Positions 1,713-42,826 of a DNA stretch of 64,000 nucleotides are shown piece by piece. How positions within the stretch are numbered: position 1 is the first letter of the stretch; every line of letters begins with the position of its first letter. The stretch lies in the NCBI RefSeq assembly GCF_054482595.1, contig NZ_CM137008.1. The stretch is one strand, 5' to 3'. A program made the position numbers and the translations under genes. The notes beneath the pieces were generated by a model. That model worked only from the letters and a program-made list of their open reading frames with translations, ran no database searches and was not told the origin of the DNA.

Positions 1713-3014
1713 ATGGCGCAATTCTACTCTGCAAAACGACGCACGACGACGCGTCAGATCATAACCGTTTCAGTCAACGACCTCGACTCTTTTGGTCAGG
1801 GCGTGGCGCGACATAACGGCAAAACGCTATTTATCCCCGGATTATTGCCGCAGGAAAACGCGGAAGTTACTGTTACTGAAGATAAAAAACAGTATTCCCG
1901 CGCTAAAGTCGTACGCCGGTTAAGCGATAGCCCGGAACGCGAAACGCCACGCTGTCCTCATTTTGGCGTATGCGGCGGCTGTCAGCAACAACACGCCAGC
2001 GTGGATTTACAGCAGCGAAGCAAAAGTGCGGCACTCGCCCGATTAATGAAACACGAAGTCTCTGAAGTGATCGCCGATGTTCCCTGGGGCTATCGCCGTC
2101 GCGCGCGTTTAAGTCTGAACTACTTACCGAAAACACAGCAACTTCAGATGGGGTTTCGCAAAGCGGGCTCCAGTGACATTGTCGACGTTAAACAATGCCC
2201 CATTTTAGTGCCCCAACTTGAAGCATTGCTGCCCAAAGTCAGGGCATGCCTGGGCAGCTTACAAGCTATGCGCCATCTTGGTCATGTTGAACTAGTACAG
2301 GCAACCAGCGGCACGCTGATGATTTTGCGCCATACCGCACCGCTAAGTTCGGCAGATCGCGAAAAACTGGAACGCTTTTCGCATTCTGAAGGCCTGGATC
2401 TGTATCTCGCCCCCGATAGTGAGATACTCGAAACCGTCTCTGGTGAGATGCCCTGGTATGACTCAAACGGGTTGCGCTTAACTTTTAGCCCGCGCGATTT
2501 TATTCAGGTCAATGCGGGTGTGAACCAAAAAATGGTAGCGCGTGCGTTGGAATGGCTGGATGTGCAACCTGAAGATCGCGTACTGGATCTGTTCTGCGGT
2601 ATGGGCAACTTTACACTGCCATTGGCGACACAAGCAGCCAGTGTGGTGGGTGTAGAAGGTGTTCCGGCGCTGGTGGAAAAAGGCCAGCAGAATGCGCGTC
2701 TTAATGGCTTACAGAATGTGACGTTTTATCATGAAAATCTTGAAGAAGATGTCACAAAGCAGCCGTGGGCGAAAAACGGCTTCGATAAAGTGTTGCTGGA
2801 CCCGGCGCGAGCAGGTGCCGCAGGTGTTATGCAGCAAATTATAAAACTGGAACCTATTCGTATAGTTTATGTATCCTGTAACCCTGCAACGCTGGCTCGG
2901 GATAGCGAAGCGTTATTAAAAGCAGGATATACCATTGCGCGACTGGCGATGCTGGATATGTTCCCACACACGGGACATCTGGAATCGATGGTACTTTTCT
3001 CGCGCGTTAAATAG
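1713..3014 (+). CDS. rlmD: 23S rRNA (uracil1939-C5)-methyltransferase RlmD (RumA)
   Basis: 433 aa ORF starting [21 protein letters not shown]; Cys cluster and SAM-methyltransferase motif (DLFCGMGNF). Confidence 0.93.
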
Positions 3015-14545: not shown

Positions 14546-14883
14546 TTAAACATTTATAAGCGTTATAAATGGGTGGAACCTGTAAAGACTTCTACTCATT
14601 TATATTCTTTGTCGTCTCTGAAAAACCTCCATTTTGCCCATCCTGAACTAATCATTATCATTCTCTACAAATTCTGTGGCGTTAATTTTTCGCTGGAGTG
14701 AAAATTATTGCGGTAAAGTTTGGTAGATTTTAGTTTGTATAGAGTTATTTTAAATATTTACCTTTTTAATCAATTGGTTAAGTGCTCTTTAACATAATGG
14801 ATGTGTTGTTTGTGTGATACTGTAAAGTTGGTAGATTGTGACTGGCTTAAAAAATCATTAATTAATAATAGGTTATGTTTAGA
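14546..14883 (+). promoter_or_regulatory. AT-rich CRISPR leader for array A
   Basis: AT-rich segment ending ...ctggcttaaaaaatcattaattaataataggttatgtttaga immediately before first repeat; same ttaga junction as the cas2-proximal leader. Confidence 0.75.
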
Positions 14884-15339
14884 GAGTTCCCCGCGCCAGC
14901 GGGGATAAACCGGCCTGGCGATTTCTCGTCAGGCCTTGCGGTGTGAGTTCCCCGCGCCAGCGGGGATAAACCGTCAGTAAAGCGGCGCCCACTGATATCG
15001 GATTAGAGTTCCCCGCGCCAGCGGGGATAAACCGAGGGGCAGGGAGTGACGCTGGAGCAGGCGATCGAGTTCCCCGCGCCAGCGGGGATAAACCGGGAAA
15101 TTAGGCAAATGTGAACACGGCGGCCCCGAGTTCCCCGCGCCAGCGGGGATAAACCGCCAGTATTTTGTCGTGGATTGCGGGATCACCAGAGTTCCCCGCG
15201 CCAGCGGGGATAAACCGTTGAGTTTGTTCGTAACAACGCGGGTCATCTGGAGTTCCCCGCGGCAGCGGGGATAAACCGGGTACAAAAGAGGCCCCATTCT
15301 GGCAGGGCTCAAGTTCCCCGCGCCAGTGGGGATAAACCA
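14884..15339 (+). CRISPR. Type I-E CRISPR array A: 8 repeats, 7 spacers of 32 nt
   Basis: Repeat gagttccccgcgccagcggggataaaccg at 14884, 14945, 15006, 15067, 15128, 15189, 15250 (c13g variant), 15311 (degenerate terminal); exact 61-bp period. Confidence 0.97.
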
Positions 15340-15793
15340 CCATATAACCCGTTATCTCTTTCTCAAGTTTTTATATTAGCAGTACTCGTAATAAGCAACA
15401 TATCCACGTAACACCTCATGTTCAAAATAGTTCCCCATGCCAGATAAGTTCACAATTATCGATACAAAAAATCAAATTTAATCAAAGTGTTATTTGTATA
15501 ATCCTTAAACCGTTAAGAAATTTTAATGTATTATTTTTTTTAATATTAATTAATGCCTGTTAATTTTTTCTTTAGAATAACAGTGTGTTTTTTAAGCTTG
15601 TTATTCATTGATTAAGTAATAAATCTGGAAATTTGTCTTTGTTTTGAGGCTAATGAGTGGTTTTACATAACCGCCTCTATACGCTGTTGATGAATGGTTC
15701 TTATGAATAAAGATATCCAGTTCATACTTTAAGTGTAAATTGATAAAGTGCGATTCGTATTGTCTTTTATTCTAAAGACATCGAGTGTAGTTA

Positions 15794-15932
15794 ATATTCC
15801 TTGTAAAAACAGGGATAAACCGAACTAGTTAAAGTTTTTATTATGTTCCCTGCATCAGCGGGGATAAACCGGACTTGTTATCATTTTTTAAGTTGTCGAA
15901 CTTATGTTCCCCGCGTCAGCGGGGATAACCAT
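15794..15932 (+). CRISPR. Decayed CRISPR remnant (3 degenerate repeats)
   Basis: Degenerate repeats at about 15794, 15843 (atgttccctgcatcagcggggataaaccg) and 15904 (atgttccccgcgtcagcggggataaccat); spacers 20 and 32 nt. Confidence 0.7.
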
Positions 15933-31773: not shown

Positions 31774-31790
31774 ATATTGCCGGATAAATT

Positions 31791-31830
31791 AAACGCCTCT
31801 GTCAGAAATGATGGGGGCGTTTTTATTTTG
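31791..31830 (+). terminator. cysJIH rho-independent terminator
   Basis: aacgcc ... ggcgtt hairpin followed by tttttatttt. Confidence 0.7.
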
Positions 31831-32130
31831 CGAGCAGCATTCCTGATTTTAAACGTGAACGCCGCTGGAAGAATTATCAGGTATAGAATGGCGTCGGGTG
31901 CTTGAGGCTGTCTGGCGTTAAGCATTCGCGAGGTTCCAGATGGACAAAAGCCCCAGGCGATATTTCTATCAACCTGAGGCTCGCGTTCGAACGTAGCAAT
32001 TCGGATGTTAGTCTCTTCTTTGCAGGGAGGCAAGACATGTGTATATCACTGTAATTCGATATTTATGAGCAGCATCGAAAAATAGCCCGCTGATATCATC
32101 GATAATACTAAAAAAACAGGGAGGCTATTA

Positions 32131-34797
32131 ATGGAACCTTTTAAATATATATGCCATTACTGGGGAAAATCCTCAAAAAGCCTGACGAAAGGAAATGATA
32201 TTCATCTGTTAATTTATCATTGCCTTGATGTTGCTGCTGTTGCAGATTGCTGGTGGGATCAATCAGTCGTACTGCAAAATACTTTTTGCCGAAATGAAAT
32301 GCTATCAAAACAGAGGGTGAAGGCCTGGCTGTTATTTTTCATTGCTCTTCATGATATTGGAAAGTTTGATATACGATTCCAATATAAATCAGCAGAAAGT
32401 TGGCTGAAATTAAATCCTGCAACGCCATCACTTAATGGTCCATCAACACAAATGTGCCGTAAATTTAATCATGGTGCAGCCGGTCTGTATTGGTTTAACC
32501 AGGATTCACTTTCAGAGCAATCTCCCGGGGATTTTTTCAGTTTTTTTGATGCCGCTCCTCATCCTTATGAGTCCTGGTTTCCATGGGTAGAGGCCGTTAC
32601 AGGACATCATGGTTTTATATTACATTCCCAGGATCAAGATAAGTCGCGTTGGGAAATGCCAGCTTCTCTGGCATCTTATGCTGCGCAAGATAAACAGGCT
32701 CGTGAGGAGTGGATATCTGTACTCGAAGCATTATTTTTAACGCCAGCCGGGTTATCTATAAACGATATACCACCTGATTGTTCATCACTGTTAGCAGGTT
32801 TTTGCTCGCTTGCTGACTGGTTAGGTTCCTGGACCACAACGGATACCTTTCTTTTCAAAGAAGATGCACCTTCAGGAATACAAGCGCTAAGAACATATTT
32901 TCAGGATAGACAGCAGGATGCGTGTCGGGTACTGGCGCTGAGTGGCCTTGTATCAAATAAGCGTCGTTATGACGGTGTACATGCCTTACTGGACAATGGC
33001 TATCAACCAAGACAATTACAGGTGTTGGTCGATGCTCTTCCTACAGCTCCCGGGCTGACGGTGATTGAGGCACCTACGGGATCAGGTAAAACCGAAACAG
33101 CGCTGGCCTATGCCTGGAAACTTATTGACCAACAACTTGCGGAGAGTGTTATTTTTGCCCTCCCTACACAAGCTACTGCAAATACAATGCTCAGCAGAAT
33201 GGAAGCGAACGCGAGCCGTTTATTTACCTCCCCAAATCTTATTCTTGCTCATGGTAATTCACGTTTTAACCACCTTTTTCAATCAATAAAATCACGCGCA
33301 TTTACTGAGCAGGGGCAAGAAGAAGCGTGGGTTCAGTGTTGTCAGTGGTTGTCACAAAGCAATAAGAAAGTGTTTCTTGGGCAAATCGGCGTTTGCACTA
33401 TTGATCAGGTGTTGATATCGGTATTGCCAGTTAAACACCGCTTTATCCGTGGTTTGGGAATTGGTCGAAGTGTTTTAATTGTTGATGAAGTTCATGCTTA
33501 CGACACCTATATGAACGGCTTGCTGGAGGCAGTGCTCAAGGCTCAGGCTGATGTGGGAGGGAGTGTTATTCTTCTTTCCGCAACCCTACCAATGAAACAA
33601 AAACAGAAACTTCTGGATACTTATGGTCTGCATACAGATCCAGTGGAAAATAACTCCGCATATCCACTTATTAACTGGCGAGGTGTGAATGGTGCGCAAC
33701 GTTTTGATCTGCCAGCTCATCCAGAACAACTCCCGCCCCGCTTTTCGATTCAGCCAGAACCTATTTATTTAGCTGACATGTTACCTGACCTTACGATGTT
33801 AGAGCGAATGATCGCAGCGGCAAACGCGGGTGCACAAGTCTGCCTCATTTGCAATTTGGTTGACGTTGCACAACTATGCTTCCAACGGCTAAAGGAACTA
33901 AATGACACGCAAGTAGATATAGATTTGTTTCATGCGCGCTTTACGCTGAACGATCGTCGTGAAAAAGAGAATCGTGTCATTAGCAATTTCGGAAAAAATG
34001 GGGAGCGAAATGTTGGACGAATACTTGTCGCCACCCAGGTCGTGGAACAATCACTCGATGTAGATTTTGATTGGTTAATTACCCAGCATTGTCCCGCTGA
34101 TTTGCTTTTCCAACGATTAGGCCGTTTACATCGCCATCATCGTAAATATCGTCCCGCCGGTTTTGAGATTCCTCTGGCAACCGTTTTGCTGCCTGATGGC
34201 GAAGGTTACGGACGACATGAGCATATTTATAGCAACGTTAGAGTCATGTGGCGGACGCAGCAACATATTGAGGAACTTAATGGAGCATCCTTATTTTTCC
34301 CTGATGCCTACCGGCAATGGCTGGATAGCATTTACGATGATGCTGAAATGGATGAGCCAGAATGGGTCATCAAAGGCATGGATAAGTTTGAAAGCGCTGA
34401 GTGTGAAAAGAGGTTCAAGGCTCGCAAGGTTCTGCAGTGGGCTGAAGAATATAGTTTGCAGGATAACGATGAAACCATTCTTGCGGTAACGAGGGATGGG
34501 GAAATGAGCCTGCCATTATTGCCTTATGTACAAACGTCTTCAGGTAAACAACTGCTCGATGGCCAGGTCTACGAGGACCTAAGTCATGAACAGCAGTATG
34601 AGGCTTTAGCACTTAATCGCGTCAATGTGCCATTTACCTGGAAACGTAGTTTTTCTGAAGTAGTCGATGAAGATGGGTTACTTTGGCTGGAAGGAAGGCA
34701 GAATCAGGATGGATGGATCTGGCAGGGTAACAGTATTGTTATTACCTACACTCGGGATGAAGGGATGACCAGAGTCATCCCTGCAAATCCCAAATAA
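32131..34797 (+). CDS. cas3: Cas3 helicase-nuclease (type I-E)
   Basis: 888 aa ORF MEPFKYICHYWGKSS; HD motif region (HDIGKF), Walker A APTGSGKT, DEVH box (VLIVDEVHAYD). Confidence 0.96.
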   Translation: MEPFKYICHYWGKSSKSLTKGNDIHLLIYHCLDVAAVADCWWDQSVVLQNTFCRNEMLSKQRVKAWLLFFIALHDIGKFDIRFQYKSAESWLKLNPATPSLNGPSTQMCRKFNHGAAGLYWFNQDSLSEQSPGDFFSFFDAAPHPYESWFPWVEAVTGHHGFILHSQDQDKSRWEMPASLASYAAQDKQAREEWISVLEALFLTPAGLSINDIPPDCSSLLAGFCSLADWLGSWTTTDTFLFKEDAPSGIQALRTYFQDRQQDACRVLALSGLVSNKRRYDGVHALLDNGYQPRQLQVLVDALPTAPGLTVIEAPTGSGKTETALAYAWKLIDQQLAESVIFALPTQATANTMLSRMEANASRLFTSPNLILAHGNSRFNHLFQSIKSRAFTEQGQEEAWVQCCQWLSQSNKKVFLGQIGVCTIDQVLISVLPVKHRFIRGLGIGRSVLIVDEVHAYDTYMNGLLEAVLKAQADVGGSVILLSATLPMKQKQKLLDTYGLHTDPVENNSAYPLINWRGVNGAQRFDLPAHPEQLPPRFSIQPEPIYLADMLPDLTMLERMIAAANAGAQVCLICNLVDVAQLCFQRLKELNDTQVDIDLFHARFTLNDRREKENRVISNFGKNGERNVGRILVATQVVEQSLDVDFDWLITQHCPADLLFQRLGRLHRHHRKYRPAGFEIPLATVLLPDGEGYGRHEHIYSNVRVMWRTQQHIEELNGASLFFPDAYRQWLDSIYDDAEMDEPEWVIKGMDKFESAECEKRFKARKVLQWAEEYSLQDNDETILAVTRDGEMSLPLLPYVQTSSGKQLLDGQVYEDLSHEQQYEALALNRVNVPFTWKRSFSEVVDEDGLLWLEGRQNQDGWIWQGNSIVITYTRDEGMTRVIPANPK

Positions 34798-34840
34798 CTT
34801 CGGGAATGATTGGTATCAATGACGATAACAAGACCAATAA

Positions 34841-34869
34841 CGGTTTATCCCTACTTAAGTAGGGAAGGT
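34841..34869 (-). repeat. Orphan degenerate CRISPR repeat-like hairpin, antisense to the arrays
   Basis: Plus strand cggtttatccctacttaagtagggaaggt versus repeat reverse complement cggtttatccccgctggcgcggggaactc: 19/29 identical including first 11 nt; hairpin kept by compensatory pairs. Confidence 0.6.
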
Positions 34870-35211
34870 GCACAATGTACATCTTCTTTTAATTTCCCGG
34901 TATGAGATTTTATATTCGCAGTATGAATATTTTATGTAATAAAATTTATGGTAATTATTATAACTAAAAGTTTCTTTGATAATAAAACGAATAACTTGCA
35001 GATTTGAAATGCATGCATTATTGTCTTTAAACAATTCAACACATCTTAATATATGTATAGGTTAATTGTATTAAACCAATGAATATATTTTTGCAGTGAA
35101 TGTGATTATTGAATTAATTACGCCGTATTTTTTCTTTGTTTTTACCGATAACGGAAGTGTGCCGACGTATAGAAATGCAGGAGAAATGTCGGAGCATATG
35201 AAGGAGAACAA
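34870..35211 (+). promoter_or_regulatory. AT-rich cas3-cse1 intergenic region; Pcas promoter for Cascade operon (H-NS/LeuO-controlled in K-12)
   Basis: Visibly AT-rich block between cas3 stop and cse1 start; role assigned from K-12 literature, promoter elements not mapped here. Confidence 0.55.
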
Positions 35212-36720
35212 ATGAATTTGCTTATTGATAACTGGATCCCTGTACGCCCGCGAAACGGGGGGAAAGTCCAAATCATAAATCTGCAATCGCTATACTGCAG
35301 TAGAGATCAGTGGCGATTAAGTTTGCCCCGTGACGATATGGAACTGGCCGCTTTAGCACTGCTGGTTTGCATTGGGCAAATTATCGACCCGGCAAAAGAT
35401 GACGTTGAATTTCGACATCGCATAATGAATCCGTTCACTGAAGATGGGTTTCAACAACTCATCGCGCCGTGGATAGATATGTTCTACCTTAATCACGCAG
35501 AACATCCCTTTATGCAGACCAAAGGTGTCAAAGCAAATGATGTGACTCCAATGGAAAAACTGTTGGCAGGGGTAAGCGGCGCGACGAATTGTGCTTTTGT
35601 CAATCAACCGGGTCAGGGTGAAGCATTATGTGGTGGATGCACTGCGATTGCGTTATTCAACCAGGCGAATCAGGCACCTGGTTTTGGTGGTGGCTTTAAA
35701 AGTGGTTTACGTGGAGGAACACCTATAACCACCTTCGTACGTGGGATCGATCTTCGCTCGACGGTGTTACTCAATGTCCTCACAATACCTCGTCTTCAAA
35801 AACAATTTCCCAATGAATCACATACGGAAAACCAACCTACCTGGGTTAAGCCTGTCAAACCCAATGAATCTGTGCCAGCTTCGTCAATTGGCTTTGTCCG
35901 CGGCTTATTCTGGCAACCAGCGCATATTGAATTATGCGACCCCATTGGGATTGGAAAATGTTCTTGCTGTGGGCAGGAAAGCAATTTGCGTTATACCGGT
36001 TTTCTTAAGGAAAAATTTACCTTTACAGTTAATGGGCTATGGCCCCATCCGCATTCCCCTTGTCTGGTAACAGTCAAGAAAGGGGAGGTTGAGGAAAAAT
36101 TTCTTGCTTTCACCACCTCCGCACCATCATGGACACAAATCAGCCGAGTTGTGGTAGATAAGATTATTCAAAATGAAAATGGAAATCGCGTGGCGGCGGT
36201 TGTGAATCAATTCAGAAATATTGCGCCGCAAAGTCCTCTTGAATTGATTATGGGGGGATATCGTAATAATCAAGCATCTATTCTTGAACGGCGTCATGAT
36301 GTGTTGATGTTTAATCAGGGGTGGCAACAATACGGCAATGTGATAAACGAAATAGTGACTGTTGGTTTGGGATATAAAACAGCCTTACGCAAGGCGTTAT
36401 ATACCTTTGCAGAAGGGTTTAAAAATAAAGACTTCAAAGGGGCCGGAGTTTCTGTTCATGAGACTGCAGAAAGGCATTTCTATCGACAGAGTGAATTATT
36501 AATTCCCGATGTACTGGCGAATATTAATTTTTCCCAGGCTGATGAGGTAATAGCTGATTTACGAGACAAACTTCATCAATTGTGTGAAATGCTATTTAAT
36601 CAATCTGTAGCTCCCTATGCACATCATCCTAAATTAATAAACACATTAGCGCTTGCCCGCGCCACGCTATACAAACATTTACGGGAGTTAAAACCGCAAG
36701 GAGGGCCATCAAATGGCTGA
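35212..36720 (+). CDS. casA: Cse1 (CasA, Cas8e) Cascade large subunit
   Basis: 502 aa ORF MNLLIDNWIPVRPRNGGKVQIINLQSLY. Confidence 0.95.
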   Translation: MNLLIDNWIPVRPRNGGKVQIINLQSLYCSRDQWRLSLPRDDMELAALALLVCIGQIIDPAKDDVEFRHRIMNPFTEDGFQQLIAPWIDMFYLNHAEHPFMQTKGVKANDVTPMEKLLAGVSGATNCAFVNQPGQGEALCGGCTAIALFNQANQAPGFGGGFKSGLRGGTPITTFVRGIDLRSTVLLNVLTIPRLQKQFPNESHTENQPTWVKPVKPNESVPASSIGFVRGLFWQPAHIELCDPIGIGKCSCCGQESNLRYTGFLKEKFTFTVNGLWPHPHSPCLVTVKKGEVEEKFLAFTTSAPSWTQISRVVVDKIIQNENGNRVAAVVNQFRNIAPQSPLELIMGGYRNNQASILERRHDVLMFNQGWQQYGNVINEIVTVGLGYKTALRKALYTFAEGFKNKDFKGAGVSVHETAERHFYRQSELLIPDVLANINFSQADEVIADLRDKLHQLCEMLFNQSVAPYAHHPKLINTLALARATLYKHLRELKPQGGPSNG

Positions 36721-39562: not shown

Positions 39563-39577
39563 TTGAGGTGTAATAAA

Positions 39578-40780
<1,203 letters not shown>

Positions 40781-40885
40781 AAACAAAGAATTAGCTGATC
40801 TTTAATAATAAGGAAATGTTACATTAAGGTTGGTGGGTTGTTTTTATGGGAAAAAATGCTTTCAGAACAAATGTATACTTTTAGA
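40781..40885 (+). promoter_or_regulatory. CRISPR leader for array B
   Basis: AT-rich, ends ...gggaaaaaatgctttcagaacaaatgtatacttttaga directly before first repeat. Confidence 0.8.
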
Positions 40886-41768
40886 GAGTTCCCCGCGCCA
40901 GCGGGGATAAACCGCATTTAATGCAAAACTAATTGCACAATAAATAGAGTTCCCCGCGCCAGCGGGGATAAACCGGCGATAAACCTCCTCATCGCTGATA
41001 TCAATAAGAGTTCCCCGCGCCAGCGGGGATAAACCGATAAAGGCTCGGCGGCGCAAAAAATGGCACGGGAGTTCCCCGCGCCAGCGGGGATAAACCGCTC
41101 TCGTTGTTGTGCCTCAGTACCGGTGCGCGGAGTTCCCCGCGCCAGCGGGGATAAACCGCACACCGGTGCGACGGGAAACGTTCAGCGGCCGAGTTCCCCG
41201 CGCCAGCGGGGATAAACCGGGAATAGTTAATTTCGGTGATGGCTGCGTAAAGAGTTCCCCGCGGCAGCGGGGATAAACCGAGTAATGCTGCGTTGAGATG
41301 ACCAGGCGGGCTGAGTTCCCCGCGGCAGCGGGGATAAACCGTTGACGCCAGCGGCGACCCGCGCCACGGGCTTGAGTTCCCCGCGCCAGCGGGGATAAAC
41401 CGTAGCCAGACGTACTCGCAATCTGTCGGCGGTCGAGTTCCCCGCGCCAGCGGGGATAAACCACCAGTTCTCCGTATTCTGTGGTTATCGTTGCTGAGTT
41501 CCCCGCGCCAGCGGGGATAAACCGGGAGTTCAGACATAGGTGGAATGATGGACTACGAGTTCCCCGCGTTAGCGGGGATAAACCGCCCGGTAGCCAGGTT
41601 TGCAACGCCTGAACCGAGAGTTCCCCGCGCCAGCAGGGATAAACCGGCAACGACGGTGAGATTTCACGCCTGACGCTGGTGTTCCCCGCGCCAGCGGGGA
41701 TAAACCGGGCGCACTGGATGCGATGATGGATATCACTGAGAATTCCCCGCCCCTGCGGTAGAACACCC
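40886..41768 (+). CRISPR. Type I-E CRISPR array B: 15 repeats, 14 spacers of 32 nt
   Basis: Repeats every 61 bp from 40886 to 41740; variants at repeats 7-8 (c13g), 10 (3' a), 12 (cc to tt), 13 (g to a), 14 (a2t); terminal repeat 41740-41768 degenerate. Confidence 0.97.
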
Positions 41769-41788
41769 AGCTCCCATTTTCCAACCCA

Positions 41789-42826
41789 TCAAGACGCCTT
41801 CGCCAGCTCCTTCACCAACGGTAGCATTATCCGCATAACATCACGGCAGCGACGTTCTATTCTTCCAGGAAGTGCCTTATCAATATGTTGTTGATTATCC
41901 AGTCTTACGTCATGCCAGCTATTTCCCGCCGGGAAGGCAGGTGTTTTTGCGCGTTGCTGATAACCATCCTTATTCCCAAGATTCCAGTTAGTCGCTTCCA
42001 CCGAAAGTACAGCAATGCCCGCTTTGTCGAATATTTCTGCGTCATTACAACACCCAGTGCCTTTCGGATAATTTTTATTCAAACCCGGATTGGTCGTTGC
42101 GGCAATTCCATGACTACGCGCAATTGCCAGCGCCCTGTCGCGCGTTAATTTCCTTACTGCTTCAGGGGTTTTTACACCGCTGTTGAAATACAATTTATCG
42201 CCAACAATTAAGTTATCGAGATTAATCACCAGCAGCGTATTTTTCTTTTCGGTGTCACTCATCCGCTTGAGTAAATTCTCAGCGCCTAATTTCCCTTCCT
42301 CTTCGCCGCTGGTCGCCACAAATCGAATACCATACTCGGTAGGCGTATTTTTCAGGCGTTCTGCCAATTCCAGCATGACACCTAAACCTGCGGCGTTATC
42401 ATCCATTCCTTGTAACGTCAGCCCGCCGAGATTGGCATCGGCGTCAGCATCGCTCAGCGGGGCGTAAGTATCCAGATGCGCCATAATGATGATCTGCTGC
42501 GGGGCTTTGCCTTCATGAGCGGCAATCACCGTACTTCCCGTCACGTTATGCCAGCTCTTACGATTATCGCGGGCGGTATAAATATACCGACTATTAAATG
42601 TCCGAATATCACTGCGATAACCCATTTGCTGAAACTGTTGGCGAATATAATCGGCAGATAACATTTCTGCAGGAGTTCCGGTCATGCGTCCCGGAAAGAA
42701 AGTAGCAATATGTCGTGCCTGAGTATTAGCAAAATCGCCAGGTTTAGGTGACGAGGCGTGTACGGGGAGAATAAAGCATACGCCGAGCGCCAAGGCAGCG
42801 GTACGGTGGCGCAATGCGGAAAACAT
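41789..42826 (-). CDS. iap: Alkaline phosphatase isozyme conversion aminopeptidase
   Basis: 345 aa ORF MFSALRHRTAALALGVCFILPVHA with signal peptide. Confidence 0.92.
   Translation of the reverse strand: MFSALRHRTAALALGVCFILPVHASSPKPGDFANTQARHIATFFPGRMTGTPAEMLSADYIRQQFQQMGYRSDIRTFNSRYIYTARDNRKSWHNVTGSTVIAAHEGKAPQQIIIMAHLDTYAPLSDADADANLGGLTLQGMDDNAAGLGVMLELAERLKNTPTEYGIRFVATSGEEEGKLGAENLLKRMSDTEKKNTLLVINLDNLIVGDKLYFNSGVKTPEAVRKLTRDRALAIARSHGIAATTNPGLNKNYPKGTGCCNDAEIFDKAGIAVLSVEATNWNLGNKDGYQQRAKTPAFPAGNSWHDVRLDNQQHIDKALPGRIERRCRDVMRIMLPLVKELAKAS

Follow-up and report, generated by a model that had tools for sequence, protein, structure and literature searches.

[quoted passage not shown] The gap considered here lies in a 64,000-nt stretch of DNA (the window); its source is E. 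coli, and the gap is 100% identical to that of strain XH990. The best explanation, which we hold to be very probable, is an AT-rich, H-NS-controlled region of the kind called IGLB in K-12, combined with a CreR-type feedback by a mini-array read from anti-Pcas.

Both flanking genes are on the plus strand, appear in the list of open reading frames and are annotated in K-12 and in XH990: cas3 at 32131-34797 (888 aa) and casA at 35212-36720, the latter preceded by the Shine-Dalgarno sequence AAGGAG (35201-35206). They leave 414 bp between them (34798-35211), so that the length given in the preliminary description of this DNA is borne out by the coordinates; the annotated gap in K-12 MG1655 has the same length. 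Downstream of casA lie casB-E, cas1, cas2 and then an array of 15 repeats (40886-41797), and a second CRISPR array is found at 14884-15339. The gap region was found in 1133 of 5426 complete E. coli genomes, in every case on the chromosome. A blastn search of the E. coli genomes with 'distant' settings for another I-E variant returned the same 1133 genomes only.

It had also been claimed that the gap is far more AT-rich than the genes on either side, that both CRISPR leaders are AT-rich as well, and that windowed G+C would show this. The figures agree. The G+C fraction is 0.302 in the gap and 0.281 in the 342 bp first flagged (34870-35211), compared with 0.446 in cas3, 0.441 in casA and 0.506 in the window; the leaders have values of 0.276 (40781-40885) and 0.261 (14700-14883). 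Only 0.43% of all 414-bp windows are equally low in G+C, and a greedy ORF model gives 24 gaps that measure 80 bp or more, of which this one is the lowest. The 200-bp profile has its minimum, 0.22, at 34900-35099, within an AT-rich core at 34870-35130 (0.20-0.26). At the ends of the gap, in the 72 bp next to cas3 and the 81 bp next to the Shine-Dalgarno sequence, G+C is about 0.40. TpA steps reach 0.135 in the gap vs. 0.047 in the window, about a threefold difference, and A/T tracts are 2.7 times as dense. The gap holds two 9/10 matches to the high-affinity H-NS motif, where 1.6 sites of at least 8/10 are expected per 470 nt. From this composition and the K-12 literature the core is presumed to be a platform for the nucleation and spreading of H-NS that holds divergent promoters. 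The gap between cysH and cas3, at about 31774-32130, is far less AT-rich (0.44); the small RNA SokX is annotated in K-12 in the gap upstream of cas3 that corresponds to this stretch.

The K-12 IGLB, with Pcas and anti-Pcas, silencing by H-NS and antagonism by LeuO, was reportedly described by Pul et al. and by Westra et al. in 2010. In K-12, Pcas (Pcas8e) is located in the cas3-casA region and is silenced by H-NS, or by StpA if H-NS is absent; LeuO activates it and CRP represses it (PMC10011333, PMC7074321, PMC4782391, PMC6698644). LeuO binds two extended AT-rich sites on either side of the promoter and the H-NS site (PMC6698644, PMC3497052), and its core has been described as 19-bp 7-5-7 (PMC6698644). 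A CRP box at -281 to -259 overlaps a LeuO site (PMC10013973), and SlyA binds the 414-bp cas3-casA fragment, for which the site TTATTGAATTAA was proposed (PMC5797941). [quoted passage not shown] Its RNA of 150-200 nt runs into the 3′ end of cas3 and overlaps the cas3 transcript (PMC7074321).

The present gap occupies the same locus as the K-12 IGLB, and although the source strain is not K-12, the identity to MG1655 is 98.8%, with five substitutions (34813, 34829, 34918, 34947 and 34978). Two of these are in the guide described below, one is in its target and two are in a presumed LeuO/CRP region. Because the 233 bp nearest to casA are identical to MG1655 and only five positions differ overall, the K-12 interpretation transfers: homology supports the view that the same control of Pcas would operate at this locus, binding itself being documented in the K-12 literature only. 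The claim of H-NS and LeuO control in the preliminary description stands on that footing. By location, homology, richness in AT and TpA, and matches to the H-NS motif, the region belongs with the K-12-type Pcas regions. The casA promoter of Salmonella Typhi resembles it in its silencing by nucleoid proteins and relief by LeuO (H-NS/LeuO/Lrp; Medina-Aparicio et al., 2011), but is under Lrp, whereas the E. coli operon is not regulated by Lrp (PMC3497052).

Several elements of this control can be placed on the sequence. The probable Pcas lies on the plus strand at 34996-35024, where conserved architecture suggests a -35 hexamer TTGCAG (34996-35001), a 17-nt spacer and a -10 hexamer TATTGT (35019-35024); the hexamers reach no more than 7/12, and the PAM of the target described below shares positions with the -35. 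Consensus scans give candidate anti-Pcas promoters on the minus strand between 34954 and 35008, which would transcribe the mini-array. One (34982-34954) has TTATCA at 34982-34977 and AATAAT at 34959-34954, the other (35008-34979) has TTCAAA at 35008-35003 and TATTAT at 34984-34979. In the gap, counts of promoter hexamers from the consensus scan are at or below the expectation from shuffled AT-rich DNA, and the scan matches were used as candidates only. A palindrome scan found two 7-N5-7 palindromes, 34912-34930 and 34928-34946, within a putative upstream LeuO/CRP region at 34912-34953; the published CRP box would fall at 34931-34953 when its coordinates are taken relative to the ATG of casA. 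The proposed SlyA site is present on the plus strand at 35106-35117, 100 bp upstream of casA (PMC5797941).

The hairpin at the cas3-proximal edge of the gap was reported in the preliminary description as an orphan. The hairpin is real (34841-34869), and it is not an orphan: it is the first unit, psiR1, of a two-repeat array on the minus strand. psiR1 (ACCTTCCCTACTTAAGTAGGGATAAACCG) is identical to the repeat at 19 of 29 positions and shares an exact 11-mer, GGGATAAACCG; its 8-nt 5′ handle, ATAAACCG, is perfect, and two compensatory changes in its 7-bp stem, which is closed by a tetraloop, leave 7/7 pairs. It is followed by psiS (TTATTGGTCTTGTTATCGTCATTGATACCAA, 34810-34840, minus strand), a 31-nt spacer-like guide placed between the two units, and by psiR2 (TCATTCCCGAAGTTATTTGGGATTTGCAG, 34781-34809, minus strand), a degenerate second repeat with 14/29 identity that overlaps the last codons and the stop codon of cas3. 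psiR2 has lost the sequence of the 5′ handle and keeps the 7-bp stem, with 7/7 pairs, and the tetraloop. The canonical repeat, psiR1 and psiR2 fold to an identical dot-bracket. When 11 sequences of repeats or repeat-like units, drawn from six loci, are compared, the stem is paired in 93.5% of cells vs. 77.8% in shuffles, and 13 changes affect both sides of a pair, a result reached in 0 of 500 shuffles; when the register is slid the signal collapses. Because of the second unit, the identical folds and a covariation beyond that of shuffles, the stretch from 34869 to 34781 is, as judged from its sequence, a degenerate two-repeat mini-CRISPR. Two units flanking a spacer, a psiR1 handle intact at 8/8 positions and the retention of both hairpins are the structural features of CreR-type mini-arrays. 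Comparison of the element with Rfam gave only chance snoRNA matches (E above 1), and when Cracr-like mimics of the mini-array were sought in phages and plasmids, chance matches alone appeared.

A transcript starting near 34947-34972, as from the candidate anti-Pcas promoters, would measure 166-190 nt to the end of psiR2, and the reported RNA is 150-200 nt long. The earlier suggestion that RNA from the hairpin would be subject to the same control is in line with the behavior of K-12 anti-Pcas, which is H-NS-repressed and runs into the 3′ end of cas3. Directly after psiR2 on the minus strand, inside the 3′ end of cas3, there is a further hairpin, AGGGATGAC-CAGA-GTCATCCCT (34761-34782), with a 9-bp stem and a 4-nt loop. 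It is present in the minimum free energy fold of a 196-nt minus-strand RNA (z = -3.75) and may form the 3′ end of the anti-Pcas/mini-array transcript; a terminator scan found no T-run terminator on either strand. By eye, G+C-rich hairpins are seen at the equivalent position in several relatives.

A target for the guide is found within the gap itself. psiS begins TTATTGGTCTTGTTATC, and a partial protospacer for it, TTATTCGTTTTATTATC, occupies 34994-34978 of the minus strand. Ahead of it is the PAM AAG at 34997-34995 (CTT on the plus strand), which is AAG in all nine loci compared. Guide positions 1-5, 7-8, 10-11 and 13-17 are matched, that is, 7/7 in the seed and 14 of the 15 positions that are not flipped; only 14 bases pair, and the one mismatch at a paired position is at position 9. 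This is the only seed-perfect, PAM-flanked psiS site in the window. None of 20,000 shuffled guides reached 14/15 non-flipped matches, and only 0.5% had any site with seed and PAM in the gap. The best match to the H-NS motif in the gap, TCGTTTTATT (9/10, 34981-34990), lies within the target. Partial complementarity with an intact seed, an AAG PAM and a position adjoining the likely Pcas -35 are what is expected of a CreR target. With the mismatch at position 9 and 14 paired bases, stable binding by Cascade that carries the E. coli guide would not be guaranteed.

Within E. coli, the 8-nt handle, the seed and the PAM are invariant in 10 alleles, and the polymorphic positions of psiS, 34813 and 34829, are both outside the seed. 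Purifying selection on the mini-array and target within the species is unsupported, as 3 variable sites in 109 nt do not differ significantly from 17 in about 320 nt. Two linked haplotypes are seen at 34813/34829/34978, T/T/A in the K-12 type and G/C/G in the window type. The first two sites change the guide, at positions 28 and 12, and the third changes position 17 of the target; the window haplotype pairs one base more, at position 17, than that of K-12.

Species-representative genomes were scanned with CasA, which gave 24 loci, and the cas3-cse1 junction could be read in 20. There is no gap in 13 of the 20, where cas3 runs into the start of cse1. In the gapless loci L004, L007, L008, L010, L012, L014-L019 and L024 (around 3001-3004) this is usually a 4-bp overlap of the ATGA type. 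Only Citrobacter amalonaticus, two Pantoea, Edaphovirga and a Thiotrichaceae MAG have long gaps, of 317-367 bp; in an Erwinia the gap is 183 bp. All five long gaps have a psiR1 on the minus strand at the cas3-proximal edge, with a hairpin and a handle like ATAAACCG. Four of the five have a second repeat-like unit near the cas3 stop; in Edaphovirga none passed the scan. Three more metagenomic loci, found through the peptide family described below, have the same layout. Because most relatives in the CasA clade are without a gap, the long gap with its mini-array is, on this distribution, a derived insertion limited to some lineages.

The guides of the eight other loci are mutually unrelated in sequence, and for each of them the gap of its own locus holds an AAG-flanked minus-strand match, located 176-248 bp upstream of cse1. 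Among guide positions 1-12 of the nine loci there are 16 mismatches, 13 of them at positions 6 and 12, which are the bases flipped out and left unpaired by I-E Cascade (PMC3497052; Shmakov et al., PMC10120712). At eight of the nine, the CTT complementary to the PAM merges with the TTG of a -35-like hexamer, and a -10-like hexamer follows 16-17 nt on. With mismatches concentrated at 6 and 12, AAG kept throughout and promoter-like hexamers beside the site in eight of the nine loci, guide and target covary across genera, and the pattern is one specific to Cascade bound at a promoter.

All eight relatives with a mini-array also have, between the target/promoter and cse1, a small open reading frame with a Shine-Dalgarno sequence that would encode a peptide of 35-46 aa (L003, 2867-2980; L005, 2826-2954; L006, 2854-2973; L021, 2881-2991; L020, 2848-2988; L035, 1549-1680; L036, 2195-2302; L037, 492-617). 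Between its end and cse1 there are 10-14 nt. The single-TM peptides, of which MDLKRIIDSLNRITPLAITFIALVIAMLALVVVLRSQ is an example, have an amphipathic segment at the N-terminus and a single hydrophobic helix, and the consensus is ...L..L..I(T/S)P.(G/A)IA.LAL..A..AL.... When 1.84 billion representatives were searched in full with HMMER, only 12 members came up, and the three that were checked all lie 13-14 nt upstream of a cse1; a word-indexed protein search returned the query members only, and no Pfam family corresponds to the peptide. Its placement matches the architecture of the Cascade-repressed toxin demonstrated by experiment in Citrobacter rodentium, and by this analogy of arrangement the peptide is likely a Cascade-repressed, CreT-like toxin. 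In the E. coli gap no homologue was found in six frames with tblastn and an HMM (best E 0.11). A GTG-start reading frame of 39 codons at 35096-35215 (MNVIIELITPYFFFVFTDNG...), which overlaps the casA start by ATGA and is without a Shine-Dalgarno sequence, was considered as a relative and rejected, as the shared tripeptide ITP is not significant and there is no significant similarity; it is probably not a gene.

The mechanism that we propose would have two layers. In the first, established in K-12 and extended here from the 98.8% identity, the AT-rich, TpA-rich core would serve as a platform for binding and spreading of H-NS or StpA, and H-NS would occlude Pcas, which drives casABCDE-cas1-cas2, together with the back-to-back, divergent anti-Pcas. 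LeuO, and probably SlyA and BaeR, would bind flanking sites and break the H-NS filament, with CRP competing with LeuO. In the second layer, the function of which is predicted, anti-Pcas would transcribe the mini-array from 34869 to 34781. Cas6e would cut both hairpins to release a crRNA-like RNA of about 60 nt (minus strand, 34848-34789), beginning at AUAAACCG and consisting of the 8-nt handle, the 31-nt guide and a 21-nt hairpin. Cascade loaded with this guide would pair over about 17 nt with the target; this site overlaps a candidate anti-Pcas promoter, and its PAM overlaps the -35 of the probable Pcas. Because the match would be too short to license or recruit Cas3, Cascade would repress the operon that encodes it and probably also the guide. 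Such negative feedback of the CreR type would be relevant only once silencing by H-NS is lifted. Autorepression would be at most partial, because Cascade is, according to the literature, strongly expressed in hns mutants of K-12.

Both parts of this proposal have precedents. Shmakov et al. (2023; PMC10120712) predicted an E. coli I-E mini-array. Their mini-array lies between cas3 and cas8e in the orientation opposite to cas3, with a well-conserved upstream and a degraded downstream repeat, as here, and no IHF site was found at it (PMC10120712). They placed its target immediately upstream of Pcas (PMC10120712); the AAG-flanked, partial match that overlaps an H-NS site just upstream of Pcas was re-derived independently in the present work. 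The coordinates of their element and of psiR1-psiS-psiR2 are equated through their description, not through a sequence. Since control by H-NS and LeuO is textbook regulation of E. coli I-E and the mini-array with its target had already been predicted by Shmakov et al., the finding is in these respects already known.

The I-E CreR of Salmonella enterica is likewise a degenerate psiR1-psiS-psiR2 upstream of casA with an AAG-PAM partial match, located about 140 bp upstream of casA (Liu et al., 2023). It belongs to a different cas variant and has a different sequence, and it matches over 15 consecutive nucleotides, whereas the E. coli match is 14/17 and interrupted. With Salmonella CreR, Cascade from E. 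coli MG1655 represses 8.6-fold, and excess crRNA or AcrIE8 relieves the repression (Liu et al., 2023, bioRxiv 10.1101/2023.03.10.532045). The CreTA module of Citrobacter rodentium also has an opposite-strand crRNA-like gene and a PAM-flanked target at a promoter, but it includes a translated 96-bp toxin ORF and uses an ATG PAM, in contrast to the AAG PAM of E. coli, where no toxin ORF is detectable (Basta, Campbell et al., 2025; PMC12055562). By sequence, psiR1-psiS-psiR2 is of the CreR type, with processing and repression in E. coli predicted. The element is not CreTA as defined by the toxin, not a canonical CRISPR array and not a terminator. As an array it was rejected because only 19/29 and 14/29 positions of its repeats are identical to the consensus.

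It is possible, though unlikely, that the gap is nothing but an AT-rich, H-NS-silenced promoter in which the repeat units are the decaying relic of an array or of CreTA, with no working guide in E. coli. The loss of function in such a relic would suit the absence from E. coli of the peptide gene that accompanies the mini-array in all eight relatives, the guide mismatch at position 9, a conservation within the species that does not exceed background, and the broken cas genes of many strains (cas1 here, casA or cas3 in others). Decay would not readily account for a Cas6e-type geometry kept exact in both hairpins through compensatory changes, nor for a handle, seed and PAM that are intact and do not vary in 10 alleles, and the agreement of guide and target is far beyond chance. 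Reviews relay that Pul et al. originally suggested an antisense role, in which anti-Pcas RNA would act on the 3′ end of cas3 through termination, stability or translation, and would not guide Cascade. The RNA would indeed overlap the last 40 nt or so of cas3 along with the stop codon, and it is strongly structured (z = -3.75). We consider this improbable as a replacement for the guide, since the repeat-like geometry, the perfect 5′ handle and the covarying, PAM-flanked targets in nine loci are left unexplained; antisense and guide roles are not mutually exclusive.

Two further readings are very improbable. One is that the gap hides a Cascade-repressed toxin and is a full CreTA addiction module. 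The opposite-strand crRNA-like gene, the PAM-flanked target at a promoter and the location between cas3 and casA are shared with C. rodentium (PMC12055562), and the relatives do carry a 35-46 aa single-TM peptide ORF, with Shine-Dalgarno sequence, just upstream of cse1. The tblastn and HMM searches, however, found no peptide homologue in any frame of the E. coli gap, no ORF preceded by a Shine-Dalgarno sequence is present in 34998-35211, and the only longer plus-strand ORF, at 35096-35215, does not encode a TM peptide. Moreover, published studies routinely work with K-12 derivatives from which cas genes have been deleted. The other is that the hairpin at 34841-34869 is an intrinsic terminator of cas3. 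Its stability as a stem-loop (-10.3 kcal/mol) and its position, 44 nt past the stop codon of cas3, could suggest this, but no T-run follows on the plus strand, a terminator scan of 34500-35400 was empty, and the exact handle ATAAACCG on the other strand would be left without explanation.

Under the preferred reading of H-NS control joined to CreR-type feedback, a more specific history can be put forward tentatively, and it falls somewhat short of being probable: anti-Pcas RNA would be the precursor of a CreR guide under H-NS silencing, and the gap would descend from a CreTA cassette that has lost its toxin. The ancestral cassette would survive in Citrobacter amalonaticus, Pantoea, Edaphovirga and several uncultured lineages, and in E. 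coli the toxin ORF would have been replaced by an extremely AT-rich, H-NS-bound leader. The comparison suggests a route by which a CRISPR addiction cassette loses its toxin and comes under a host silencer. If the feedback is real, the model organism of type I-E biology has a second, RNA-guided layer of control, and anti-Pcas, reported in 2010, has a function; a self-targeting guide probably explains it. Direct testing is feasible, as E. coli Cascade, hns mutants and Pcas reporters exist.

Some further observations concern the integrity of the locus. In strain E1654 (L038) the gap is interrupted by an IS1 that separates the probable Pcas from casA and lies about 130 bp upstream of the latter; it adds 777 bp, with a 9-bp duplication, TAACCAATG, equivalent to 35073-35081 of the window. 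The casA gene of E1654 has an internal stop, and cas3 or casA is broken in several other sampled strains. In the window, cas1 appears frameshifted, as the 918-nt gene of K-12 corresponds here to two ORFs (39563-40051 and 40048-40494), and the annotation in the identical strain XH990 reads 'frameshifted'; because of this, spacer acquisition is probably defective in the source strain. About 450 bp past the second array, beyond a very AT-rich stretch (15340-15793, G+C 0.28), there are three degenerate repeats at 15794-15932, with 18-24 of 29 positions identical to the consensus; these probably represent the short companion array that E. coli is known to have.
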